A stretch of 62,765 bases of DNA from an uncultured Gammaproteobacteria bacterium (GCA_963827755.1 CAWHCQ010000038.1:1-62765); one strand, 5' to 3'; counted from the stretch's first letter, positions 19,408 through 31,655 are shown. The notes: generated by a model from the letters alone, not told the origin. Program-made: numbers and translations.

Positions 19408-19995
19408 ATGAACGCACTCAAGGTATTTTTTGCTGTTTTTCTGACCACCCTGCTGCTGAACGGCTGTGCACCGCTTGTTGTGGGCGGGGCCGCAGCCACC
19501 GGCGTGAACATCGCCCATGACCGGCGCACCGTGGGCACCTACATCGACGACGAAGGCATCGAACTGAAGGCCGGTGCGGCGATTCGCCGGGAGAAGGAGC
19601 TGAGCAGCCAGATTCACATCAATATCATCAGCATCAATGGCGTGGTACTGCTGGTTGGCCAGGCACCAACCGAGGCCCTGCGACAGCAGGCCGCTGCAAT
19701 TACCCGGGGAATCGAGAAGGTGCGCCTGGTGCACAATGAAATGACGGTCGCCGCACCGAATTCGCTGATGACGCGCAGCAGCGATTCGGTCATTACAACG
19801 AAAGTGAAGGCCAGCCTGATCGGCATCAAGGGTCACGACGACCTGGATGTTACGCGCGTCAAGGTCGTTACCGAGAACGGCACCGTGTTCCTGATGGGGC
19901 TTCTCTACCATGCCGAGGCCGATGCGGTCACGGAACGTGCCAGCCAGGTGAGCGGTGTACAGAAAGTGGTCAAGTTGTTCGAGTACCTGGATTGA
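19408..19995 (+). CDS. dolP: Dual-BON lipoprotein (DolP/YraP)
   Basis: Lipobox LNGC, DRRTVGTYIDDEGIE, VKVVTENGTVFLMG. Confidence 0.9.
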   Translation: MNALKVFFAVFLTTLLLNGCAPLVVGGAAATGVNIAHDRRTVGTYIDDEGIELKAGAAIRREKELSSQIHINIISINGVVLLVGQAPTEALRQQAAAITRGIEKVRLVHNEMTVAAPNSLMTRSSDSVITTKVKASLIGIKGHDDLDVTRVKVVTENGTVFLMGLLYHAEADAVTERASQVSGVQKVVKLFEYLD

Positions 19996-20072
19996 CATCC
20001 CCTCCCGGCGACACGGTGTATGCAAGCGGTCAGTGCAACACCCCGCAAGCAGGCGCGACCCGGCAGACCGTT

Positions 20073-21080
20073 CTAGCGAGCGCTGTTCAGGCCAACGAAA
20101 CTGCCACCGTTCGTTTCCGCCAGCCGGCGCATCAGCGCGGCGTAGCGCACGGCATTCACCGGGAGATTCTGCCCCGTGCCAAACAGCACCGGGAAGCCGA
20201 CTGTATGGATACGCACGCGCCGCTTGCCGGACTTGTCGGCGCGATTGAGCTGCGCCACGGTGTCGACCACGGCCTGGATGGAACCGCGCGCAAAATCGTC
20301 GCCGAACACGTACAGGCTGATGCGCTTGTCCTGCGCATGGAAGCGACGGATGGCAGCCTCGATGCCTTCCACGGGACTTGAATTGGAAAAAGGCTGCCAG
20401 CCGGAGAGCCGCGTGATGATGGCCCTGCGGCGCGCCGGCGTGTCGGGTATCCACTTGCCCTGGTACTGCGAGAACATGTAGTCACCCATGTCGTTCATTA
20501 CCTGGATGCCCTTGACCCGCGGGTAAATGTCCAGCACCTCGGTGACCTTCTTCAACACCAGCGGCCAGGCATTCTGCTGCATGGAACCGGAGGTGTCGAT
20601 AATGAAAATAATGTACTCGCTGTCGACCGGCACCCCGCCGATGGTGGCCGCCAGTTTTTTGCGCTGGTAGCTGCTGCCCAGCAGGCGCCGCATTTCCTCC
20701 GTCAGTTCCTGTTTCGCAGACGCCAGCTGCTTCTCGATAATGGTCTGCGCATCATGCTCGTTGCGGGTGGTGGCGTACTGGCCACGAATCGTCGACATGT
20801 CGCCCTGGAGGCGCGCCAGTTTGTCGCGCTGCTCCGACAGCTGCTCTCGCCGGGCAGTCAGGTCACGGTTGAACACCGTGGTCTCGCCCCGGATCTCGTG
20901 CAGTTCGGCTTCCAGTTTCGCCACCAGTCCGCTGAGGTCAACCGCCAGCTGTTCGATGACATGCGGTTCTGAAATCTTGACGATCACCAGCAACAGGATG
21001 ATCGCGCCGAAACCGCAGGAAACCACATCCAGGAAGGACAGGTTGAAGATGTCGATGCTGCGGCGGCTACGCCGTCTCAT
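20073..21080 (-). CDS. Single-TM coiled-coil + vWA protein with ExbD/MotB-like N-terminus (paralog 1)
   Basis: Basic N-terminus, FNLSFLDVVSCGFGAIILLLVI TM helix, coiled coil, MIDAS-type IIDTSGSM and later FGDD. Confidence 0.85.
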   Translation of the reverse strand: MRRRSRRSIDIFNLSFLDVVSCGFGAIILLLVIVKISEPHVIEQLAVDLSGLVAKLEAELHEIRGETTVFNRDLTARREQLSEQRDKLARLQGDMSTIRGQYATTRNEHDAQTIIEKQLASAKQELTEEMRRLLGSSYQRKKLAATIGGVPVDSEYIIFIIDTSGSMQQNAWPLVLKKVTEVLDIYPRVKGIQVMNDMGDYMFSQYQGKWIPDTPARRRAIITRLSGWQPFSNSSPVEGIEAAIRRFHAQDKRISLYVFGDDFARGSIQAVVDTVAQLNRADKSGKRRVRIHTVGFPVLFGTGQNLPVNAVRYAALMRRLAETNGGSFVGLNSAR

Positions 21081-22168
21081 GGCCAGTCCCGCGCCGGTGT
21101 CATAAAGGAACCGCTCGTTTCCTGTGCGAGTTTCCAGAATGCCGCCGCTGCCCAGGCATCACCTTCCATCGGCAGCAGTACCGTATTCACCGGGATGCCG
21201 GACGGCAGCACACGCATCGCCGCCTGAAAGTGTTGCAGACGTTCGGCGCCGGACACCGTGGTTGCGCCTGGTTTGCCGCGCCCCTGCGTCGGCAGGCCAT
21301 CGGTGACCAGCAGGATATTGTCCGGCCGCGGCGACAGCTTTCCCGCAACCGCGAACGCATGGTACAGGCTGGTGCCATCGCCCGGCACGGTCTGGCGCAG
21401 GGCACCGATGGCGGCGTCCACGTCCTTGCGGCTGGAGGCCTGCAGCCAGTTGCCGTCGGTGCCGCTGACGGCGGCGCCGGCCCGCGTGTTGAAGGTATAG
21501 AGCTGAAACTTCGCCGTGGAAGGCAGGTTGCTGACCAGCCAGTCGGCGGTTTTCAATGCACGCTGCCACTTGGGTGCACTGCGTTTGACGGCCGCATTCA
21601 TATTGCGCTTGCGCACCACGTTGATAATGGTCTCGTCGAGCATACTGGCCGAGACGTCCACCAGCAGCAGCACCCGCTTGCCGCCCATCTTCAGCCCGGT
21701 GAGATACTGGCGGTCACCCTCCCCCTTGACCTCGCGAACCCTGGTACCGCTGTCTTGCTCTGCCGGCTGCGCCGCACCGAGGCGTTTATTCTCTTCATCC
21801 TGGTTCTTCAGATCAGACGCTAACTCATTGATATGTTGTCGACTTGCCAGGGTTTCGTTATCCATGCGTGCCACTTCGATCTCGAGCTTCCTGACGGTCT
21901 CGATGATGCGCTCGGCCTCGCCCTGCGTCGTGACCAGTTCACTGTCGGTGGCAGCCAGGCTGTTTTGGGCCGTCACCATATCCTCGCGGCCGACGATCAC
22001 TTCCTGCTCGAGGCGGACCACTTCGGAGCGCAGGTCCGCAAACACGGCATTGCGCGCGCGCACGGTGTCGGTATTGAGGATCAGCACCAGCAGCACCACG
22101 GCGCCGAAGCCGCAGAACATGATGTCGAGGAACGACAGTGAAAAGGGTGAAACGGGACGGCGTTTCAT
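21077..22168 (-). CDS. Single-TM coiled-coil + vWA protein with ExbD/MotB-like N-terminus (paralog 2)
   Basis: FSLSFLDIMFCGFGAVVLLVLIL TM helix, coiled coil, LVDVSASM, GTSL, LVTDGLP; 4-bp overlap with paralog 1. Confidence 0.85.
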   Translation of the reverse strand: MKRRPVSPFSLSFLDIMFCGFGAVVLLVLILNTDTVRARNAVFADLRSEVVRLEQEVIVGREDMVTAQNSLAATDSELVTTQGEAERIIETVRKLEIEVARMDNETLASRQHINELASDLKNQDEENKRLGAAQPAEQDSGTRVREVKGEGDRQYLTGLKMGGKRVLLLVDVSASMLDETIINVVRKRNMNAAVKRSAPKWQRALKTADWLVSNLPSTAKFQLYTFNTRAGAAVSGTDGNWLQASSRKDVDAAIGALRQTVPGDGTSLYHAFAVAGKLSPRPDNILLVTDGLPTQGRGKPGATTVSGAERLQHFQAAMRVLPSGIPVNTVLLPMEGDAWAAAAFWKLAQETSGSFMTPARDWP

Positions 22169-22193
22169 AATATTGTCCGGCCGCGCGCGCCGC

Positions 22194-22988
22194 TCAGCTG
22201 CGCAGGCGCCGGATCAGCCAGTGATCGACATAACGTTCGCTGTCGAGCACCAGGCGCTCCTGCATCAGCTGCAGCTGGTGCACAAAAAACATCAGGACGA
22301 TGCTGATGACCAGTGCGATGAAGGTCGAGTTGAAGGCCACACCCAGGCTGGCGGTGACCCCGGTAATGTCGCCCTCGACGGCACGGTGCGCCTGCCCGAG
22401 GGCGTCACCGATGCCACGGACGGTGCCGATAAAACCCACCGAGGGAATGGCCCAGGCAATGTAGCGGATGATGGACAGCTCGGACTCCAGGCGATCACCT
22501 TCCGAGTCGCACAGATCGCGCGCCGCCGTCGAGACGTTTTGTACATTGCGGGTCGCGGCAAAGCGCTCGATGGCGGTCAGCAGCGTGCGCGGCAGCAGGT
22601 AGTGCTGCATGGACGCCGGCAGCGACTGGATGCGCCCGGACAGGTCGCGGGTGTCTTCCGGGCCGATGGGCAACTCCGCAGGCAGGCGCAGCAGGTCCTG
22701 GTCGAGCAGCTTCTGCTGACGCCAGGTCATCCGGCCCTTGAAACCGAGAATGGAAAAGGCCCACAGCATGAGGACAAAACAGGTTTCCTGTTCGTAGTCC
22801 TTGACGACCACGAAGAATGACCGCTGTTGAACATAGCCGGGGTCGGACTGCATCTGCAGTGCCTCCTGCCCGATGAAGGCATTGGCCTGCGGCCGGATGA
22901 AGCTGACATAGAGCGCATGCACCAGGATGAATGCAATCAGCAGTGAAAATATCTGGTAAAAGAATTCAACGGGGAAGCCTCTGTTCAT
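22194..22988 (-). CDS. MotA/TolQ/ExbB proton-channel family protein
   Basis: IPSVGFIGTVRGI and LGVAFNSTFIAL channel helices; about four TM segments. Confidence 0.9.
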   Translation of the reverse strand: MNRGFPVEFFYQIFSLLIAFILVHALYVSFIRPQANAFIGQEALQMQSDPGYVQQRSFFVVVKDYEQETCFVLMLWAFSILGFKGRMTWRQQKLLDQDLLRLPAELPIGPEDTRDLSGRIQSLPASMQHYLLPRTLLTAIERFAATRNVQNVSTAARDLCDSEGDRLESELSIIRYIAWAIPSVGFIGTVRGIGDALGQAHRAVEGDITGVTASLGVAFNSTFIALVISIVLMFFVHQLQLMQERLVLDSERYVDHWLIRRLRS

Positions 22989-23023
22989 GGCGCGTCTCTT
23001 CCTGTGTCAGGTCGGGTAGTCAT

Positions 23024-23263
23024 TCAAATATCCACGGGGAACGACACGGCGCTGTCGGCGCCGATCTTCTCCGTGGGGGTAAAGGTGGCCGCGGGTTTGC
23101 GCACCGGCCGAGGGTCCTGTCTGGCCGGGGGACCGGGTTGCTCCGTGGCAGTCTCCGTGGCTGTTGCCGGCTGCTTTTCGTCCTCCGCGGCCAGGGCGTA
23201 CGGCGCCCCTGTTGCAGCCAGACAGCCAAGCACCACGACAAGTCCTGAAAAACGCACCATCAT
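23024..23263 (-). CDS. Small exported protein (~79 aa) with Pro/Thr-rich linker and distinct C-terminal tail
   Basis: Signal peptide ending ALA-A, disordered linker, C-terminus FTPTEKIGADSAVSFPVDI; in operon orientation. Confidence 0.65.
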   Translation of the reverse strand: MMVRFSGLVVVLGCLAATGAPYALAAEDEKQPATATETATEQPGPPARQDPRPVRKPAATFTPTEKIGADSAVSFPVDI

Positions 23264-23361
23264 CGATCCCCTGTCACTCGCACGCAGGTTGCGTGTATCC
23301 GTTGGGCAAAACATTTCATCCACCGCGGTTGCAAAGCTGTCATCGCGCTCGATGGCCGCAG

Positions 23362-25773
23362 CTACTCCGCATAGCGCGCCACACGAAAACCGAGATCGGG
23401 CCGCGCCGTGCGGCTGTAGTCGCGGTAACTCAGGCGCAACTCCGAGATCGTCCCCTGGCGCCAGCTCGAACCGCGCACCACGTGGTGCTCGCCGGACACC
23501 GGTCCCAGCGGATCACGTACCGGTTTGCCGGCCTCACCCGGATACACGGCATAGTAATCGTGCATCCACTCGGCCACGTTGCCGCCGAGATCATGAAACC
23601 CCGCCGGCCAGGCCGCAAAGCTGCCCACTGCTGCTGCGACCCGGTGGCCGTCATTGTAGTCCGGAACGGTATTGGCAAGGGTGTCGGCAATGCTGGCATC
23701 GGCAAAATTGCCAACGACCTCCGTCGGCGGGAAAGTTCCGCTCCACGGGTAACGCTGTTCCGACTGGCGTGTATGCCTGCGCGCGACGTAGGCCCACTCC
23801 GCCTCGCTCGGCAGACGATAACCGCTTGCCAGCGGCAACACCGCCTGCAATCGTCCATTGACCTCGGCATAGGCCGGCGGCAACCCTTCACGGCCGCTCA
23901 ACCAGTTGCAGTAGCGGGCCGCATCCTCCCAGCTTACATTCACCACCGGCTGCCTGTCGGCATTCAGGCTCACGCCCTCGGATGAACCCGAACTGTGCGC
24001 AGGCTTGAACTGCCGGTACTCTGCATTGCTCACTTCTCTGCTCGCCAGGTAGAAGGGGCGCGTCAACTCTACCAGCCGTTCACTTTCATTGGCACGGCGC
24101 CCGGCATCGCGCCGCGATGCCCCCATGCGGAAATTCCCCTGCGGGCGCACCAGTTGCAACGGCTGACCGTCCGCACTTTTCCTGACAGCGGGCGTGGCGG
24201 CCGCCTGTTGCACGCTGCGCGCCTGCGCCTCGGTCAGCAGGGTGACATCGACATTCCGGCTGCTGCCGCTGCGCGGCGTGACCGTGACGGTTTTCGAGAC
24301 ATAGCCGGCTTTGCGAAATACCAGCGTGTGACTGCGCGTCGTCAGCTGCAGACGTTGCGTGGCCTTGCCGACATCCCTGCCGTCAACCTGCAAGGTTGCA
24401 TCCCCCGGCTGCGCGGTCACGAACACAATGCCGTACTCCGGTTTCAGTTTCGCATCGAGAGACTGCTCCTCGTCCGCTGCCAGCTGCAGTTGCTTCTCGT
24501 AGCGCCGGTAGCCCGGCCGTGTCAGGCGCAGGGTGTGTTCGACATTCGAGGCAAGCAACAGGGTAACCGGCGTGGTCCCGTTAAAGACACCATCGACACT
24601 CACACTGGCCCCCGCGGGATCACTGCCGAGCACCAGCCTGCCATCGGCCGGCTGCAAGCGGAACGTATCGAGCACCAGCTCGGCACCGGCCTGAACCACC
24701 TGCTGCAGCGACAGCGGCTTGTGTTTTTCAAGTGTCAGCAAAAGGCTGCGCTCGCCCTGCAGGAGCTCGGTATCCAGCGGCGTTACGCCGATCTCTGCAC
24801 CATCCACCTGCACGGATGCACCCTGCGGCAGGCTGTCGATGTGTACCCTGGCCCAGGCCGGCTGCAGGACAAGCGTTACACGCTGGGCCTCGCCCTTGCC
24901 GGCCACGGTCAGCAACTGTTCGACCGGCAGGTAGCGCGCCGTTTCGATACGCAGCCGCCGGCTTCCGCCGGGGATCTCCGCGACCTTGTCGCCGTCAACC
25001 GGCACCTCCATATCATCGATAAACAGTCTGAACGGGATATCCGGCTGCAGCTCGATACCGACCCGGCCGGGCAGCTCCTCGAACGCCAGATCGAACATCT
25101 GCAACCCGCCCGCAAGCACCTCGATGGTCTGCCGCAGCGGGCGGTAACCCGCACGTTCCGCGGTGACCGTGTAACGGCCGGGCAGGATCAGTTGACGCTC
25201 ACCGATGGAGACCGCCGGCGGGAATCCCTTCAGCGCCTGGCGTTCCGGTTGCGGTGTAATCCGCAACGTCACCGGTGTGGCCAGCAGCACGAACACGACC
25301 GCCAGCAGTAACAGAATGAACACACCGAGGGCGATCCTTCTCAGGGTGCGCTGACCCTGTGCAGGCACGGGCGTCTGCGGCACCTCCGGAAGCGACCGGT
25401 TATTCAGCGGCAGCGGCGAATCGGCCGGCGGGACCAGTACCGGTGCAGCGGCCCGCTTCTGTACAGTGATGTGGACCTGGTCACCCTGAACCTGCCAGTG
25501 GATGACCGACTCCCCGACCTCGACCACGTCACCCGACTTCAGCCACTTCGATGCTGCCAGGTGTTCGTGATTGTGAAACAGCGGTGTTTCCGTTTCGGTC
25601 GGCTGGATGAAGGCATGGCCGTCGGTCAACCCGATATGCGCCACGACGGCAGCGCCCGGCAGACCGGGCAGCACGATGCCGCCCTGCCCCGTGCCGCCGA
25701 TGGACAGTGGCAGGTCCGCAGCACCGAGGCGGCGCTCCCCGTGCGCATCATGGACAAAATAGACGTGGCTCAA
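23362..25773 (-). CDS. FHA-like / TM / multi-PEGA / FGE-sulfatase-fold (SUMF1-like) membrane protein
   Basis: S.P.GA.V.VDG...G.TP PEGA repeats; FRMG, EVSNAEY, PVVNVSWEDA..YCNWL, YRLPSEAEW, DLGGNVAEW, RGSSW, GFR. TTG start overlaps the upstream stop. Confidence 0.88.
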   Translation of the reverse strand: MSHVYFVHDAHGERRLGAADLPLSIGGTGQGGIVLPGLPGAAVVAHIGLTDGHAFIQPTETETPLFHNHEHLAASKWLKSGDVVEVGESVIHWQVQGDQVHITVQKRAAAPVLVPPADSPLPLNNRSLPEVPQTPVPAQGQRTLRRIALGVFILLLLAVVFVLLATPVTLRITPQPERQALKGFPPAVSIGERQLILPGRYTVTAERAGYRPLRQTIEVLAGGLQMFDLAFEELPGRVGIELQPDIPFRLFIDDMEVPVDGDKVAEIPGGSRRLRIETARYLPVEQLLTVAGKGEAQRVTLVLQPAWARVHIDSLPQGASVQVDGAEIGVTPLDTELLQGERSLLLTLEKHKPLSLQQVVQAGAELVLDTFRLQPADGRLVLGSDPAGASVSVDGVFNGTTPVTLLLASNVEHTLRLTRPGYRRYEKQLQLAADEEQSLDAKLKPEYGIVFVTAQPGDATLQVDGRDVGKATQRLQLTTRSHTLVFRKAGYVSKTVTVTPRSGSSRNVDVTLLTEAQARSVQQAAATPAVRKSADGQPLQLVRPQGNFRMGASRRDAGRRANESERLVELTRPFYLASREVSNAEYRQFKPAHSSGSSEGVSLNADRQPVVNVSWEDAARYCNWLSGREGLPPAYAEVNGRLQAVLPLASGYRLPSEAEWAYVARRHTRQSEQRYPWSGTFPPTEVVGNFADASIADTLANTVPDYNDGHRVAAAVGSFAAWPAGFHDLGGNVAEWMHDYYAVYPGEAGKPVRDPLGPVSGEHHVVRGSSWRQGTISELRLSYRDYSRTARPDLGFRVARYAE

Positions 25774-27197
25774 ATCAGTTCCACGCAACGCACCAGCAAC
25801 GACGGACGAGACATACCCGGGCGTACCCTGAATACCTTGCGTACATCACGATAACCAGGCCGGCTGCCGACGACGGTATAGTCACCCGGCAGCAATTCCA
25901 GCTGATGCGTGTCGAACTGGCCGAGTCGCCCGACGCGATAGATCGCCACGCTGGTCGCACCGTCCGAGTTCAGGGTAACCGCAACCGGCGTGCCGGCCCG
26001 GCTCACCAGTTCGCGCAGTGCCGTGATTTTTTTTGCCAGCCGCGGTTCACCCTGCGGCGCCTCGCTGGCGCTGGCAAGCAACTGTCTGGCATTGGCCAGC
26101 GGTTCGGTCGAGAACACCCGGACCGGGTTGTCAAGATAGTGATCGAACTGTGCGTGCAACGCGATCCGCTGCTCTGCACGGCGCATCCCCTCGCGGGCAA
26201 AACCTGCCACCGGGTCGATGTCCAGCGCCTTGCGGTACAATCCAGCGGCGGCCTGCCAGTCTTCGGCCGCGACCCTGTTCGACGCCTGCCGGCGCAACAT
26301 TTTCAGCGCGGCCTGCATCCGCATCTGCTCCAGGCGTTGCCGCGCATCCCGGACCACGGAATCACCGGGCCGCAGGCGTCCGGCCGCGGCCAGTGCCTTG
26401 CCGGCCGCACCCGTCTGGCCGGCATCCAGTGATGCCAGCGCCCGGGTCATGGCTGCATTGAAATCACGTGCATTGATCTGTGCGCTCACCCGTTGCAGCG
26501 CCGCCGCGGCCTGCGCATGGTCCGCATCCAGCTGCACCGCCTCCCGGTAGGCCGCCGCGGCCGCCTCGAAATTGCCGTTGGCTTCCGCGGCCTGCCCCCG
26601 GTTTATCTGCTCGATGACGGCCCTGCGGCTGTGCGCCCGTGCAAGACCACGCGTGGCAAACGGGTGCCCGGCCTCGATAGCCAGTGCCGCTTCATATCGG
26701 GAGATGGCCGTGGAGGCATCATTCTCCGCCAGTGCACGGGCGGCCTCATCAAGTGCCGTGGCCAGCAGCGACGCCCGGTTGTCGACAAGCAGCTGCAGGC
26801 GGTCGAGGCCTGCCCGATAGTCCCGGGCCGCCGCAGCGAATTGCCGCTGTGTAAAATAACGGTCGCCACTGGCTACCAGCGCGGCCGCGGCACCCCACTC
26901 CGGCTCACCCCAGGCCGCGGCATTATCGAGCTCCATCCTGGCACGCTGTTGCAGGTAAGCCTGCAGGGCCCGGCGCGCCGTGTCGCGCGCTGCCGCGCTG
27001 TCACCGGCCGCCGGGGCCGGCATATCTTCCAGCATGGCGGTCTCGTCGACCGGGCCAACCAGGTCCGGAAGCAGGAAGATCACGACCATCCCCAGCAAAA
27101 GCAACGCGGCCAGCATGGCCAACGGCCAGCGCTGGTTCGCGGACGTAGTCGCAGCAGGCGGCCGCCCGGGTGGCTGCAAGGTGGTTGAATCCGTCAT
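25770..27197 (-). CDS. Membrane-anchored TPR-like helical protein with C-terminal PEGA-like domain
   Basis: N-terminal TM, repeated A...Y..AL..DP TPR patterns, C-terminal L.PGDYTVVGSRPGYRDVR. Confidence 0.8.
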   Translation of the reverse strand: MTDSTTLQPPGRPPAATTSANQRWPLAMLAALLLLGMVVIFLLPDLVGPVDETAMLEDMPAPAAGDSAAARDTARRALQAYLQQRARMELDNAAAWGEPEWGAAAALVASGDRYFTQRQFAAAARDYRAGLDRLQLLVDNRASLLATALDEAARALAENDASTAISRYEAALAIEAGHPFATRGLARAHSRRAVIEQINRGQAAEANGNFEAAAAAYREAVQLDADHAQAAAALQRVSAQINARDFNAAMTRALASLDAGQTGAAGKALAAAGRLRPGDSVVRDARQRLEQMRMQAALKMLRRQASNRVAAEDWQAAAGLYRKALDIDPVAGFAREGMRRAEQRIALHAQFDHYLDNPVRVFSTEPLANARQLLASASEAPQGEPRLAKKITALRELVSRAGTPVAVTLNSDGATSVAIYRVGRLGQFDTHQLELLPGDYTVVGSRPGYRDVRKVFRVRPGMSRPSLLVRCVELI

Positions 27198-27235
27198 ACC
27201 GGGTTGTTCGCGGACGTCCAGGTTGACAGCCACGG

Positions 27236-28441
27236 TCAGGAACCGGCCAGGCCGGTCTCGGAGACATAGATGCGCTTCAGCAGGGCACGCCACCGGGCGT
27301 ATTGCACTTCGGCCGATCCGGTCAGTTCGTGGGTCTCGCCCTCCACCTCGACGACCATCGGCCGGGCCTCGGAGGAGAAGGATTCATCCAGCTCGATAAT
27401 GGCATCGCGATGGATTTTGGTTTCCGACGACTTGTCGAAACCGGTCTTGATGGCGTATGCGCCGCCCAGCACCAGGACATCACGCAGCACGCCGGAACCG
27501 GCATTGTTGCCGTCGCTCGAGGCCTCGATGGCGACGGCGCCAATGATGGCCGCCGCACCCAGCAGCTTGCGCTTCAGTGCCTCGCGTTCCAGTTCACGCA
27601 GGTTGGTGGCCTCCTCGCTGCGTGCCTTGCGCCACTGTGTGTAGGGCTCCTCCATTTGCCGGGTGAAATTATCGAAATGACCGTTCAGAGTGTCGATCAG
27701 CATAAAGTCCCGGTCGCGGATGGCCAATACCCGCTGGTACATCGGGTCATCTGCCGCCGGCAGGTGCATGACCCTGACCGTATCCTGGTCTGTTTCCAGG
27801 TAACCATTGAAGGCGTCCGGTGCGAGGTCTTCCGCAAAGTGCAGAGCGGCAACCCGGCGGATAGCCGAGGTTTCTGCAGCATCCAGCCTGACGCGGACTT
27901 CGGCAAGGTCATTGGCAATGGTGTTGTAGAGCGACTGGAATACCTCACTGCCATTACTGCCGCTTTGCAGGTATCGCGTGTACTCGATTTCTTCCCGGTA
28001 GGTACGCCTGAACCACTCGCGCCCGGTTGCATCCAGCGCCTTTATTTCCAGTACCAGGCGCTCGCCGTCGGATTCCAGGATGGTGCCGCGCACCAGCAGC
28101 TCGCTGCCCGTGGTGTCCTGCGGCACCATGCGCACGGCACCCCAGTAACCGGTGCTTTCCATTGTGGTGCGCAGTTGTTCCGGCAGATAACGGGCCTCGG
28201 CCTCGCGAATATCCATGGAAAGTCCCATGGCCTTGTCTTCATCGTCCGGAAGTTTGCCCGGGTCGAACAACTCCACCCAGACATCCAGCAGCTGCTCTTC
28301 AGGCAACTCGGTAACCGCCTTGTTCAGAGGCACCTTGCCATCAACATTGCGTGCCGGTCCAAGCGTGCTGCAGCCGTGCAGCAGCGCGAACAGCAGGAAC
28401 AGAAATACTGGCTTGCTAAATCTCATGGTATTGGCCTTCAT
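27236..28441 (-). CDS. Hypothetical lipoprotein
   Basis: Lipobox LLHGC; 401-aa ORF whose start abuts the upstream stop. Confidence 0.8.
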   Translation of the reverse strand: MKANTMRFSKPVFLFLLFALLHGCSTLGPARNVDGKVPLNKAVTELPEEQLLDVWVELFDPGKLPDDEDKAMGLSMDIREAEARYLPEQLRTTMESTGYWGAVRMVPQDTTGSELLVRGTILESDGERLVLEIKALDATGREWFRRTYREEIEYTRYLQSGSNGSEVFQSLYNTIANDLAEVRVRLDAAETSAIRRVAALHFAEDLAPDAFNGYLETDQDTVRVMHLPAADDPMYQRVLAIRDRDFMLIDTLNGHFDNFTRQMEEPYTQWRKARSEEATNLRELEREALKRKLLGAAAIIGAVAIEASSDGNNAGSGVLRDVLVLGGAYAIKTGFDKSSETKIHRDAIIELDESFSSEARPMVVEVEGETHELTGSAEVQYARWRALLKRIYVSETGLAGS

Positions 28442-29217
28442 CAGCGTGTGCCTTGCTTGTACTTGCGGTATTCCTCCCAGAGTTTCTTCTTCAGTTCGGG
28501 GTCGGTCTCCTTCTCGGCAGCCTCGCGCAGTTGCCGCGCCACCACGTCATCATCACTGCCGTCCGGGATATCCGGCGGTGTTCCCGGTCCGCCGCCCTGG
28601 CGCTGTGCCCCGCGGCCCGCCCCGCGGCCGTAACTGGTATCGCTGCCACCCTCCGGGTTCGCCCCGGATTTGCCTGCTGCACTTTCAGCACCTTCTGCGC
28701 CTTCTGCACCTTCTGTACCTTCAGTGCCTTCCCCTGTGCCTGCAGCGCCTGTGCCGCCACCGGCAGCATCCGTCATGGGCGCCGCGGCCCTGATGCGATC
28801 CTGTTCGCGCAGCAGCATTTCATCAAACTCACCAAGGCCGGCAAACAATTCTGCATCGAAGGCAGCGAGCTGTTCATCCATGGTTTTCTCCGCCGCCTGG
28901 TCGATCGCTGCGGGGGCGAGAAATAGCGGCGGCTGCAACGGACAGCCCAGATCAGGCGACATTTGAAGACCGGCCTCGGCCAGCGCCACGCAGTCCTCGG
29001 CAACCTGGCGGTGCAGGCGGGCGACATAGCTGGCATAGTCAGCGGCTTCTACACCATTAAGACTGCCACGCTGCCGCCGTGCATGAAAATCCTGCTCGGC
29101 AGCATTCAGGGCGGCATGGTCGATGTGCAAGCGGTCAAGCAGCTGCAGATTATCGGCAGCCGACCCGCAGCTTGCCAGCAACAATCCTGCCATTATCAAT
29201 AATCTATCATGCTTCAC
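28441..29217 (-). CDS. Hypothetical exported (possibly lipo-)protein with Gly-rich linker and acidic helical C-terminus
   Basis: LLLASC N-terminus; GTEGAE linker; PPDIPDGSDDDVVARQLREAAEKETDPELKKKLWEEYRKYK. Confidence 0.75.
   Translation of the reverse strand: MKHDRLLIMAGLLLASCGSAADNLQLLDRLHIDHAALNAAEQDFHARRQRGSLNGVEAADYASYVARLHRQVAEDCVALAEAGLQMSPDLGCPLQPPLFLAPAAIDQAAEKTMDEQLAAFDAELFAGLGEFDEMLLREQDRIRAAAPMTDAAGGGTGAAGTGEGTEGTEGAEGAEGAESAAGKSGANPEGGSDTSYGRGAGRGAQRQGGGPGTPPDIPDGSDDDVVARQLREAAEKETDPELKKKLWEEYRKYKQGTR
28685..28740. repeat. Coding 9-bp tandem repeat (G-A/T-E)n
   Basis: Units of the CCTTCTGCA/CCTTCTGTA/CCTTCAGTG type encoding GEGTEGTEGAEGAEGAE on the minus strand. Confidence 0.75.
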
Positions 29218-29292
29218 AGCATCTCCCGCGTCCCCGAAACACTCATACCATGTTAATACGCATGACACTTATAGAGGAAACGCATTCCACCG

Positions 29293-29367
29293 GATTCCCG
29301 GGAATCGGGCTAAAATCAACATTTTTTAACAATTTCCCCACGCTACCGGTCTCGATTCCGGGAATCG
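29293..29367. promoter_or_regulatory. Two copies of palindrome GATTCC(C)GGGAATC upstream of the vWA/ExbB operon (candidate operators)
   Basis: GATTCCCGGGAATC at 29293-29306 and CGATTCCGGGAATCG at 29353-29367, flanking an AT-rich tract. Confidence 0.45.
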
Positions 29368-29444
29368 TTGATCCTGGTGGTTCGACTGTTTATTGCGGGA
29401 TACATTCCCCTGGACTTCCGGGTCAGGCAAGAAAGGTCATTCCT

Positions 29445-30071
29445 TCAGCGCCCGGCAGTGACGAGTTTCAGGGCCAGGCCAAGGAACACGGCTCCAGCCA
29501 CCCGGTTCATGACGATCTGCGCACGCGTCGACGTTCGCAGCCGGTTGCCCAGAAAGCCGGCGGCCCATGCTATCGAACCGAACACAATGAGCGTTGCCAT
29601 TATGAACAGCGCACCGAAATAAAATAGTTGCAGCGTCAGCGAGCCTCGCGCCGGATCTGCGAACTGCGGAAGAAATGCCAGAAAAAAGATCGCGACCTTC
29701 GGATTTGTGACGTTCATGATGACTCCACGCGCATACAGCCGGGATCTGCTTGCAGCCGGGGTATGGTTTTGGGGAATATCAGATGCGCCTGCCCGAAAGG
29801 CCAGCCATGCAAGATAAAGCAGGTAGGCGGCTCCCAGTATCTTCAGGAAATTAAACGCCGTAACAGAGGTCTGAAAAACTGCGGCCACTCCCAGGGACAC
29901 CGCCGTGGTATGAACAAGGATACCCGTGCAGAGACCCATGGTTACTACCAACCCGGCCACGCGGCCATGAAGCGCACTTTGCGTGAGTACGAAGATGTTG
30001 TCGGGACCGGGTGCCAGCGCTAAAGCAATCGACGCAGCGAAAAAAACACAGACGATATCGAACGGGATCAT
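29445..30071 (-). CDS. LysE/RhtB family translocator
   Basis: APGPDNIFV, GAAYLLYLA, NVTNPKVAIFFLAFLPQF. Confidence 0.93.
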   Translation of the reverse strand: MIPFDIVCVFFAASIALALAPGPDNIFVLTQSALHGRVAGLVVTMGLCTGILVHTTAVSLGVAAVFQTSVTAFNFLKILGAAYLLYLAWLAFRAGASDIPQNHTPAASRSRLYARGVIMNVTNPKVAIFFLAFLPQFADPARGSLTLQLFYFGALFIMATLIVFGSIAWAAGFLGNRLRTSTRAQIVMNRVAGAVFLGLALKLVTAGR

Positions 30072-30257
30072 TTTCGGAACTCCACAGCCTGAAGCCTGCG
30101 ATGAATATCTTCGAGTGACAATGATGTCAACAGCGGGCAAACGTTACCGCACATCCAGGCCGGGTTTCGCAGGAGCCGGCGACAGCTCGCGAATCTTTCT
30201 GCAATCCATGAAACCCTTCGCCAGTTGTCGCCGGCTCCTGCTAATGGCGGACCAGCC

Positions 30258-31655
30258 TCAGTGTTTCTTCTTCACATGCCGCATCAAACGGCTCTTGCGC
30301 TTCAGCTGGCGTCCCGTCAACTTGTTTTTACGGCCTTTAAAGGGGTTGTCCCCGGTGCGGAACTCGATCCGTATCGGCGTGCCGGTGATTTTCAGCGCTG
30401 CACGAAAGGCATTCACCAGGTAGCGTTTGTAGGTCTCGGGGACCTGCCTTGTCTGGTTGCCATGGATAACGATGACCGGGGGGTTCTTGCCGCCCTGGTG
30501 GGCATAGCGCAACTTGATGCGGCGCCCGCGTACCATAGGCGGCTGGTGCGCCTCTACAGCGCGTTCCAGGATCCTGTTTAAAGCAGGGGTTGCCAGCTCG
30601 CGCATGGCCGAGGCATAGGCCTTGTTGATCTGCGGGAACAGGTCACCGACGCCGGTCCCGTGCAGCGCTGATATGAAACAGGTTGTTGCAAAGTCGAGAA
30701 ACGGCAGCCTGCGCTCCAGCTGCCCGGCAATCCGGCCGCGGTCATAGTCATCCAGACCGTCCCACTTGTTTACCGCGACAATCAGCGCCCGCCCCTTTTC
30801 GGCGATATAACCGGCAAGATTCGCATCCTGCTCGCTGATCTCCAGTTGCGCATCCAGCACCAGGATGACCACGTGGGCTGCATCGACGGCCTGCAGCGTC
30901 TTGATGACACTGAATTTCTCGATGGCCTGGCTGACGCGTGAGCGACGCCGCACCCCGGCCGTATCGATCAGCGTATAGGCCTGGCCGTCACGCTCGAAGG
31001 GGATAAAGATACTGTCACGGGTAGTGCCCGGCTGGTCGAAGGCGAGCACCCGCTGCTCGCCCATGATCCGGTTGATCAAGGTGGACTTGCCGACATTGGG
31101 CCGGCCGACGATGGCAACGCGGATGCGTTCATCGTCGGGCTCCGTGGCGGGGGAATCGTCTGCCGCCGGCAGTTGCTGCAGTGCAACTGCCATCAGAGCG
31201 GCGACGCCTCGCCCGTGGGCGGCGGCAATCGCCCGGGGCTCGCCGATACCGAGCGCATGAAATTCCGCCAGTGATGCCCCGGCATCGATCCCGTCGGTCT
31301 TGTTCACCACCAGCACGCGCGGCTTTCCGGTGCGCCGCAGTGCTTTGGCGACCACTTCATCAGCCGCGGTCAGGCCCTCGCGCCCGTCAACCAGAAAAAA
31401 TACCAGGTCTGCTTCTTCAACGGCCTGCCAGGACTGCTGCGCCATCAGGTTATCCAGGTCTTCCCCGGTCTCCGACAGCCCGCCGGTATCGACTACGATA
31501 TACGGACGATCTCCAATCGTGCCATCCCCGTACTTACGGTCACGCGTCAGCCCCGGAACATCGGCGACCAGCGCATCCCGCGTCCCGGTCAATCGATTGA
31601 ATAACGTGGACTTGCCCACATTCGGGCGGCCCACCAGGGCGATTACCGGTAACAT
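30258..31655 (-). CDS. der: Ribosome biogenesis GTPase Der (EngA)
   Basis: Two [10 protein letters not shown]-domains; [10 protein letters not shown]. Confidence 0.98.

Follow-up and report, generated by a model that had tools for sequence, protein, structure and literature searches.

In a 62,765-nucleotide stretch of DNA from an uncultured Gammaproteobacteria bacterium (GCA_963827755.1, CAWHCQ010000038.1:1-62765; hereafter the window), we analyzed a cluster of eight genes, g1 to g8, in which a channel protein of the MotA/TolQ/ExbB family (g6) is accompanied by two paralogous proteins with von Willebrand factor A (vWA) or vWA-like heads (g7 and g8) and by five further genes. On balance, we read the eight genes as encoding one conserved trans-envelope machine driven by proton (ion) motive force, and this assessment includes the steps proposed for it below. 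A distinct, ion-motive-force-driven trans-envelope apparatus had been proposed from the DNA alone (the sequence-only reading), and this claim is supported by conserved gene order, by retained channel threonines, by helices with a conserved aspartate, and by the finding of no canonical ExbD/TolR subunit and no defense family in the cluster.

In the window, ORF calling placed all eight open reading frames (ORFs) on the minus strand, co-oriented and tightly packed, where the sequence-only reading had located them:

g1, 28441-29268, minus strand: exported protein with a Gly/Glu-rich disordered region and a conserved C-terminus (ORF call).
g2, 27236-28441, minus strand: lipoprotein of 401 residues (ORF call, AlphaFold model).
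g3, 25770-27293, minus strand: bitopic protein with a transmembrane (TM) helix, a TPR region and a C-terminal beta-domain (ORF call, Pfam).
g4, 23362-25788, minus strand: FHA fold, TM helix, PEGA repeats and FGE fold, 808 residues (Pfam, model).
g5, 23024-23323, minus strand: small exported protein with a C-terminal motif (ORF call, regular expression).
g6, 22194-22988, minus strand: MotA/TolQ/ExbB-family channel, 264 residues (PF01618).
g7, 21077-22168, minus strand: TM helix with Asp, coiled coil and vWA head, 363 residues (VWA_2).
g8, 20073-21080, minus strand: g7 paralogue with a vWA-like head, 335 residues (hhalign against g7).

Genes g1 and g2 share 1 nucleotide (the g1 stop and the g2 start), g3 and g4 overlap by 19 nucleotides and g7 and g8 by 4, and the spacing is 35 nucleotides between g5 and g6 and 25 between g6 and g7; the start/stop overlaps of the three pairs are also present in many related loci. 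The start of g1 had been put at 29217, an in-frame GTG that is likely the start, although the ORF itself opens at 29268, and the true start of g3 probably lies downstream of the GTG at 27293. Pfam gave no family for g1, g2, g5, or g8 beyond coiled-coil noise and, as had been claimed, no OmpA/Pal-type peptidoglycan-binding domain among the cluster proteins; an ATPase and a nuclease, likewise said to be missing, were not found among them by Pfam or NCBIfam, nor was any other effector. Promoter and terminator scans gave no useful excess over the expectation from shuffling (5 versus 2.4 and 10 versus 8.2).

Protein g6, the presumed pentameric A subunit judging from its family membership, matches MotA_ExbB (PF01618) with an E-value of 2.1e-14 and 53.8 bits, against a Pfam cut-off of 22.9; NCBIfam returned weak tolQ and exbB2 scores and nothing stronger. 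Residues P182, G185, G188, T189, V190, G192, A218, and T222 are invariant in the g6 family and align with the ExbB and TolQ proteins of the same genome, so that the motif P-x-x-G-x-x-G-T-V-x-G is kept together with a second Thr. The two threonines, T189 and T222, are invariant in 13 members of the g6 family and in register with the Thr residues of the genome's own ExbB and TolQ; we take them to be equivalent to the channel-lining Thr residues of Escherichia coli. With the PF01618 match and both channel threonines in place, the earlier assignment of g6 as a MotA/ExbB-type protein stands. The family carries its own N-terminal extension of about 95 residues and forms a distinct subfamily, with 144 representative clusters at E<=1e-30 among 2777 at E<=1e-3. 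A comparison of a g6 profile with the PDB returned TolQ, ExbB, and MotA chains, with E-values that were inflated by the genome's own TolQ and ExbB in the profile and were not used.

The genome contains four PF01618 genes, three of which adjoin a PF02472 (ExbD/TolR) gene. Because g6 is the sole exception, we regard its motor as an orphan. No PF02472 match lies on the window's contig, and the genome's three matches sit on other contigs beside the other PF01618 genes. Two of the three canonical TolQ/TolR-type sets are near-identical copies (contigs C45:106-1230 and C5:6732-7472 of genome G000, loci L131 and L132), with the same first ~60 TolR residues; the duplicate contigs fit either strain heterogeneity or the assembly's 5.4% contamination estimate.

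Comparison with these canonical sets shows g7 and g8 as the predicted replacements for ExbD/TolR, that is, as presumed B-type (axle) subunits 1 and 2. Both N-termini have a basic stretch followed by a helix of the form ...LSFLD(I/V)..CGFGA..., in which g7 Asp15 is invariant among 19 orthologues and g8 F16-L17-D18 is invariant in the orthologue alignments. This Asp, the only invariant column of the helix, is in register with that of the genome's own ExbD (...LTPLIDVVF...) and TolR (...VVPYIDVML...). Neither of the two helices, ...SLSFLDIMFCGFGA... and ...NLSFLDVVSCGFGA..., contains a His, and the SHLS motif of TonB/TolA is absent. A coiled coil follows, of about 110 residues in g7 and about 100-110 across the two proteins. 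The head of g7 matches VWA_2 at 30.0 bits (cut-off, 27), and its residues D171, S173, and S175 (DxSxS), T266, and D290 are invariant among the 19 orthologues, making up what we take to be a complete metal ion-dependent adhesion site (MIDAS) signature. Protein g8 is paralogous to g7 over its full length (hhalign probability 99.65%, E 3.9e-25, 321 columns) and has an invariant D162-T-S164-G-S166 (DxSxS) in its head; it is because of this paralogy and this motif that we call the g8 head vWA-like. Of the two TM-coiled-coil-vWA proteins described by the sequence-only reading, g7 was thus recovered directly, above the family cut-off, and g8 by way of g7 and not by a family match of its own. The gene directly upstream of g8 is g7 in all but one of 32 loci (31/32; a set that includes L029, from the unpublished genome G063), and the remaining locus is cut by the contig end.

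A motor of this kind has been predicted before. As far as its main text goes, PMC12204202 (Mol Biol Evol 2025) describes tolQ-like genes that lack tolR/exbD and co-occur with mostly heterologous TMH-vWA ('TPH-vWA') gene pairs, the vWA proteins having a TolR/ExbD-like trans-pore helix with a conserved Asp and no SHLS motif. AlphaFold 3 models in that paper place the helix inside the pentamer and the Asp residues within the Thr ring; the family is reported mainly from Proteobacteria, with some Verrucomicrobia, and the authors present the vWA proteins as transducers of force at the outer membrane and state that the function is unknown. Like these motors, as described there, g6 has no syntenic tolR/exbD, and g7 and g8 are an adjacent heterologous vWA pair with the Asp helix and without SHLS; we place the cassette with them by such described features and not by sequence kinship to the Idiomarina seed. 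The terms 'PEGA', 'FGE', and 'sulfatase' are absent from the main text of PMC12204202, so g1 to g5, their motifs, and the PorK-like head of g4 are not treated in that part of the paper, though its Fig. 4c or supplements may show neighboring genes. In the portion of the MotAB-diversity paper PMC12505986 that was covered, vWA is not mentioned, and our literature search turned up no paper that treats the accessory genes along with the motor. As far as the literature search reaches, then, the motor core is already predicted in print and the accessory half is unpublished. The earlier remark that no functional description is known accordingly holds for the function and the accessory genes and fails for the motor core, given the in silico prediction in the main text of PMC12204202. 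The locus is a typical, slightly reduced member of the predicted motor family (it lacks a gene, gX, described below), and what is new here is the C-terminal motifs of g5 and g1, the g2 fold, the FHA fold of g4, and the placement between dolP and der.

The accessory genes travel with the motor. A scan for relatives, with one genome per species, found 222; the top 80 of them were retained, each with 10-kb flanks, and the 56 of these loci in which 9 kb or more lies upstream of g8 formed the synteny set. Genes g1, g2, g3, g4, g6, g7, and g8 were co-oriented and in this order in 46/56 loci, and the same set without g1 was found in a further 5/56; the other arrangements were g3, g4, g6, g7, and g8 (2/56), g6, g7, and g8 only (2/56; L093 and L107), and g7 and g8 only (1/56). 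Because 46 of the 56 loci keep the order, across several phyla, the cassette is not a chance grouping. By record title, the 80 loci comprise about 61 from Gammaproteobacteria/Pseudomonadota, 12 from 'delta'/Desulfobacterota, 4 from Acidobacteriota (with which, on our assumption, Ca. Sulfomarinibacteraceae are counted), 1 from Verrucomicrobia, and 2 unclassified. The gene-neighborhood search thus bore out the supposition that these genes belong together, since they co-occur in Gammaproteobacteria, Desulfobacterota, and Acidobacteriota. Even in a relative of the same class and another family, with a g6 identity of 39%, the order g1-g2-g3-g4-g6-g7-g8 is kept. Of the 24 other genomes of the genus, 12 have a strong g6 match (E<1e-50), and 36 of 400 genomes drawn evenly from the class have g8 (~9%, a count that includes the window's own genome and the unpublished G063), or 29 of 320 genera.

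Among the accessory proteins, g4 is the most informative about the kind of machine. Pfam detected both parts that had been named in it, PEGA (E 1.1e-40, in three stretches, compared with five in the g4 orthologue of locus L089) and FGE-sulfatase (E 7.1e-40). The best NCBIfam model for the FGE-fold head is GldK (TIGR03525), at 100.3 bits with the equivalog cut-off of 350 not reached, and its nearest solved relatives are PorK and a 'putative lipoprotein' (E ~4e-15), ahead of true FGEs (~1e-11), whose chains align only as far as query residue 240-252 of 271. No Cys lies between the RGxSW and LGFR motifs in any of 19 aligned g4 sequences (0/19), an interval which we take to be the place of the FGE catalytic Cys pair. 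By alignment, then, the g4 head is a predicted PorK/GldK-like FGE fold without the catalytic pair, and the pointer to GldK/GldJ in the sequence-only reading proved sound, PorK/GldK being its closest solved relative. The protein is anchored by a TM helix and has no lipobox.

The N-terminus of g4 had been described as FHA-like, and the predicted model agrees: it has a predicted local distance difference test (pLDDT) score of 86.9, and its Foldseek matches in the PDB are FHA domains or FHA-containing proteins (probability 0.97-1.00), including Ki67, Rv0020c, GarA, and the YscD N-domain, among 40 matches listed, the last of which is a spliceosome entry and not FHA. The Pfam FHA model has no match in the window's g4 and matches two orthologues weakly (E 0.011 and 0.012). 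FHA domains bind phosphothreonine through conserved Gly-Arg and Ser-x-x-His residues. In an 11-sequence alignment of the region, P27, G31, A50, N73, L83, and D87 are invariant, no conserved Arg follows G31, and Ala stands at the expected Ser (mapped by eye), so that the FHA-fold domain of g4 probably lacks the canonical phosphothreonine-binding Arg and Ser.

Besides its single TM helix, g3 comprises a helical, TPR-like region on the periplasmic side and, at the C-terminus, a PEGA/CarboxypepD_reg-like beta-domain (~80 residues), which is the best conserved part of the protein. The TPR_1 score in the window is 25.6 bits, under the 27.8 cut-off, and TPR families match 15/18 orthologues, compared with 2/18 each for PEGA (at E<=0.01) and CarboxypepD_reg. 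The earlier label of g3 as TM-TPR-PEGA therefore holds for TPR and is weak for PEGA, which is found in only two of the orthologues.

In Bacteroidota, the gldK-gldL-gldM genes have the order FGE-fold gene, motor A, motor B. Genes g4, g6, and g7/g8 parallel this order, and because the arrangement recalls gldK-gldL-gldM, a type IX-like 'motor plus ring' is our preferred picture of the machine. As in the PorK-PorL-PorM-PorN (GldKLMN) core of type IX secretion and gliding, an ion motor here stands beside a noncatalytic FGE-fold protein and the B subunits are long enough to span the periplasm, and we infer by analogy that the layout would be closer to this core than to Ton or Tol. A stronger version of the parallel is that the cassette is itself a secretion or surface-motility apparatus like the type IX/gliding core, with a g4 ring under the outer membrane, a g7/g8 axle that drives the ring or a track, and cargo encoded elsewhere. 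The kinship of the g4 head to PorK/GldK and the gene order favor it, but we judge it unlikely, if the least so of the alternatives considered here, given that the GldK score of 100 bits is far under the cut-off of 350, that NCBIfam has no Gld/Por model (GldL, GldM, or GldN) for g6 to g8, and that neither a SprA-like translocon nor cargo with a type IX C-terminal domain is found in the cluster. Protein g6 belongs to PF01618 (TolQ/ExbB-like) and not with GldL, g7 and g8 are coiled-coil-vWA proteins and not GldM, and no GldN is present; PorK is a lipoprotein, whereas g4 is predicted to be TM-anchored in the inner membrane with a cytoplasmic FHA domain, and the cassette is carried by Proteobacteria, Desulfobacterota, and Acidobacteriota and not by Bacteroidota.

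The outer-membrane end of the machine would be formed by g2 and g1. Cys24 of g2 is invariant in 18 orthologues, which marks the protein as a lipoprotein, and because it has Ser at the position after the Cys (+2), it is probably sorted to the outer membrane, following the +2 rule of E. coli lipoprotein sorting. Its AlphaFold model (pLDDT 76.6, predicted template modeling score 0.77; tip at 295-329 below 50) has an N-terminal alpha/beta domain and, after it, a long hairpin of helices whose hydrophobic tip is rich in Gly and Ala. VIA-align matched the N-terminal domain to the FlgT/LPHT ring (Z 11.6), the TolB N-domain (Z 10.9), PelC (Z 10.9; root mean square deviation 2.3 over 110 residues), and the CsgG complex (Z 9.9), with PqiC/DUF330, LptE, and TraT as further fold matches; Foldseek found the same families with weak E-values, and the Atlas matches are hypothetical proteins only. 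Many of these fold relatives are ring-forming lipoproteins under the outer membrane, and the presence among them of the export lipoproteins PelC and CsgG adds a point in favor of a type IX-like apparatus.

Protein g1 has a long, Gly/Glu-rich disordered region and, in the window, a lipobox (LASC); some orthologues have a plain signal peptide and no lipobox. Pfam and NCBIfam gave no family for it, and only its C-terminal ~45 residues are conserved, with 15 residues invariant in 16 orthologues across phyla (consensus DIPDGxDDDVVARQLREAAExExDPELREKLWEEYRKYK). In protein g5, a signal peptide is followed by a low-complexity linker that varies, and the protein ends in the near-invariant motif [FY]-x-P-[ST]-E-x-[IV]-x-x-[DE]-x-x-V-x-[FY]-P-x-D-I (window sequence, FTPTEKIGADSAVSFPVDI); E85, V93, P96, D98, and I99 are invariant in 20 sequences. 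When the g4-g6 interval was searched with a regular expression, 55 of 61 loci had the motif, and five of the six misses are close variants, with none in L117; g5 is real and conserved. A four-chain structure prediction of mature g5 with the g4 FGE head and the g7 and g8 heads gave partner scores of 0.70, 0.72, and 0.76, and controls gave 0.00 when the partner was replaced (two controls) and 0.74 when the g4 head was replaced, missing the 0.20 margin; the score may stem from the chain that was kept and counts neither for nor against binding. The g4-g5 interval also holds insertions in other genomes. At L061:4696-5155 (Olavius-associated 'Delta 1'), two small ORFs between g4 and g5 look, by eye, like a ribbon-helix-helix antitoxin and a RelE/ParE-type toxin inserted in the operon. 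L074 (4147-6069) and L108 have an insertion of 2.5-3 kb at this place, after which g5 with its motif follows; in L074 it is a 640-residue ORF with a signal peptide, and in L108 the g4-g5 gap is about 3 kb.

The TolB N-domain among the best fold matches of g2 (Z 10.9) raises a different function, outer-membrane tethering or maintenance of the Tol-Pal kind, in which the motor would pull on g1 and g2 and so stabilize or remodel the outer membrane, for example, in division or stress. It would agree with a tethered, exported g1 that ends in a conserved docking-type motif and with the view of vWA proteins as outer-membrane force transducers in the main text of PMC12204202. We nevertheless hold it to be a doubtful explanation, somewhat behind the type IX-like one, as the genome keeps canonical TolQR/ExbBD-type pairs, the cassette is accessory (g6 in 12/24 congeners, g8 in 36/400 class genomes), and the OmpA/Pal-type peptidoglycan-binding domain is missing from its Pfam matches. 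With ExbB-ExbD-TonB and TolQ-TolR-TolA, the cassette shares the Pfam family and the two channel threonines of g6, the helix Asp of g7 and g8, and a presumed role in passing energy on to the outer membrane. It differs from them in having no ExbD/TolR periplasmic domain, TonB/TolA, TonB-dependent receptor, or Pal/TolB in the cluster and in the predicted fusion of the force transducer to the axle in g7 and g8. The sequence-only reading had also drawn a comparison with the Myxococcus Agl-Glt system, where, according to the parts of PMC9946355 and PMC11761067 that were covered, the partners of a TolQ-family motor are TPR proteins and lipoproteins and a vWA domain takes part in the function. This comparison proved a misfit: AglRQS has canonical TolR-like subunits, whereas the window has no PF02472 match, and the vWA adhesin CglB is an outer-membrane lipoprotein, whereas the vWA domains of the cassette sit on the predicted inner-membrane axle.

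The surroundings of the cluster point to an accessory, horizontally moving chromosomal cassette, with mis-binned contigs of metagenome-assembled genomes (MAGs) as the alternative. The flanking genes that had been named, a dolP-side gene and a LysE-type gene, are present as ORFs, and their names, like that of der, are not from Pfam:

dolP-side, BON-type gene, 19408-19995, plus strand (ORF call).
LysE-type ORF, 29445-30140, minus strand (ORF call).
der, 30258-31655, minus strand (ORF call).

The dolP-der distance is 1.1-1.8 kb in the cassette-free congeners G002, G008, and G017 and in G023, where the cassette is present but sits on a different contig; in the window, this interval (19995-30258) is about 10 kb and holds the cassette and the LysE-type ORF, for which there is no match at E<=1e-8 in the dolP-der interval of four congeners (L133-L136). 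The guanine-plus-cytosine (GC) content of the cluster is 0.633, compared with 0.596 in the rest of the window. Identity of g8 is 66-69% to copies in MAGs labeled Desulfuromonadales or Deltaproteobacteria (L054 and L055) and 52-58% to many gammaproteobacterial copies, which would reflect either recent cross-phylum transfer or mis-binned contigs. It is the dolP-der site, the GC content, and these identities that lead us to a moving cassette. We found no g8 match by tblastn among 72,556 plasmid records at E<=1e-20 and no convincing flanking repeats around the cassette. An inverted repeat of 28 nucleotides (89% complementary, 23 nucleotides between the arms) lies at 30166-30244, between the LysE-type ORF and der.

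Several features would also suit an antiphage or conflict system of the Zorya type, with a MotAB-like motor as the sensor of envelope perturbation: the motor is an orphan of the MotA family and has long coiled coils, and to this are added a patchy distribution in the genus at a variable genomic site, a deviating GC content, and some high cross-phylum identities (g8, 69% to a 'Desulfuromonadales' MAG). ZorAB, too, is an orphan MotAB-like motor whose coiled coil is long and whose distribution is accessory, and it shares the 5:2 composition that we infer for the cassette. However, the ZorA coiled coil is cytoplasmic and ZorB binds peptidoglycan, whereas the coiled coil of the cassette is predicted to be periplasmic and belongs to the B subunits. 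PADLOC gave no match for the eight proteins other than coiled-coil noise in g8 (LmuB, E 0.0046; DndD, E 0.0082), no ZorC/D-type effector, nuclease, or ATPase is present, structural proteins that are exported or periplasmic account for five of the eight products, and the gene content is rigid across phyla, unlike that of typical defense islands. We therefore consider a defense role very improbable.

Near-identical DNA was found in sediment and marine-sediment metagenomes (13 runs from 8 studies at a word share of at least 0.2; runs below this share were excluded for habitat, and one of the 13 may be the source sample). One metatranscriptomic library, X19, contains stretches of g7 (249 nucleotides with 0 differences and 251 with 2; window 21016-21567) and of g4 (406 nucleotides with 7 differences; window 24491-24896), a weak hint that the cassette is expressed, as DNA can occur in such libraries; the parts of the cluster for which X19 has no contig count neither way.

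Several observations weigh against a single machine as we have drawn it. In L093 and L107, g6 to g8 lie together and g3 and g4 are elsewhere in the genome, and in the Verrucomicrobia locus L096, g8 stands among unrelated genes; because of such split loci, physical coupling between the g1-g5 and g6-g8 halves is not a necessity. Most loci (51 of 55) have, in a gap of 1.1-1.9 kb that separates g6 from g7, one more gene, gX, of about 420 residues (L089:7649-8908); it is absent from this place in the window and in the close loci L044, L048, L051, and L052, so that the window's version of the cassette may be reduced. The g8 profile matched coiled-coil chains and no vWA chain among PDB sequences, and Pfam found no vWA domain in g8. 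The cluster has no outer-membrane beta-barrel and no obvious cargo, for which reason our reading of its output is a guess. As for gX itself, Pfam has no family for it, and some of its Atlas neighbor clusters carry FHA. An L089 query found no match elsewhere in the window's genome, which is 91.8% complete, so that loss does not follow. The idea that the FHA domain of g4 replaces gX was rejected, as the best BLASTP match of gX to g4 has an E-value of 0.45 and a long g4 coexists with gX in several lineages.

The split loci could mean that there are two independent, often adjacent modules, an envelope scaffold or signaling module with an FHA layer (g1 to g5) and a motor (g6 to g8). To this we give hardly any credence: the split genomes still hold both modules, 51 of the 56 loci keep g2 to g8 together, and g5 is tightly packed between g4 and g6.

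In the one-machine reading that we prefer, a g6 pentamer would surround a heterodimeric g7:g8 axle in a 5:2 complex, and proton flow through the Thr/Asp site would turn or pull this axle. The coiled coil would carry the two vWA heads across the periplasm toward the outer membrane, and the heads may capture an acidic ligand via their metal sites; the best candidates for this ligand would be the invariant C-terminal motifs of periplasmic g5 and tethered g1. Proteins g3 and g4, predicted to be translationally coupled and anchored in the inner membrane, would form a periplasm-spanning scaffold with TPR, a PEGA stalk, and the PorK-like head, and the cytoplasmic FHA fold of g4 hints at regulation, or at docking, from within the cell. 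With g2 and g1 at the far end, the machine might exert force on a lipoprotein assembly of the outer membrane or handle a surface polymer or protein. A bolder form of this proposal is a proton-driven 'winch', with an architecture parallel to that of the type IX/gliding core and parts that are TolQ-like and vWA: the MIDAS heads of g7 and g8 would seize the acidic C-terminal peptides of g5 and g1 and so reel in or turn a ring, beneath the outer membrane, of PorK-like g4 heads and PelC-like g2 lipoproteins, powering export or movement of surface components in sediment and marine Proteobacteria, Desulfobacterota, and Acidobacteriota. Taken as a joint claim, we regard the winch as speculative and rather improbable.

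To our knowledge, 5:2 ion motors (MotAB, ExbBD, TolQR, GldLM, and ZorAB) are the sole means by which energy is delivered to the periplasm and outer membrane of diderm bacteria, and each new set of partners that we know of has revealed a new envelope process. The cassette would represent an envelope machine that is widespread in sediment and marine bacteria, with a core that is not new to the literature. In it, the force transducer, a vWA adhesion-type head, would be fused directly to the axle, and the motor travels with fixed periplasmic and outer-membrane parts. By record title, carriers include the cultured and nonpathogenic Microbulbifer echini (JCM 30400), Pseudoalteromonas denitrificans (DSM 6059), and Seongchinamella unica (GH4-78), and the question is therefore directly testable. 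Defining the output of the cassette would add a new energized envelope function and may also reveal how different motors came to be paired with a PorK-like ring protein.

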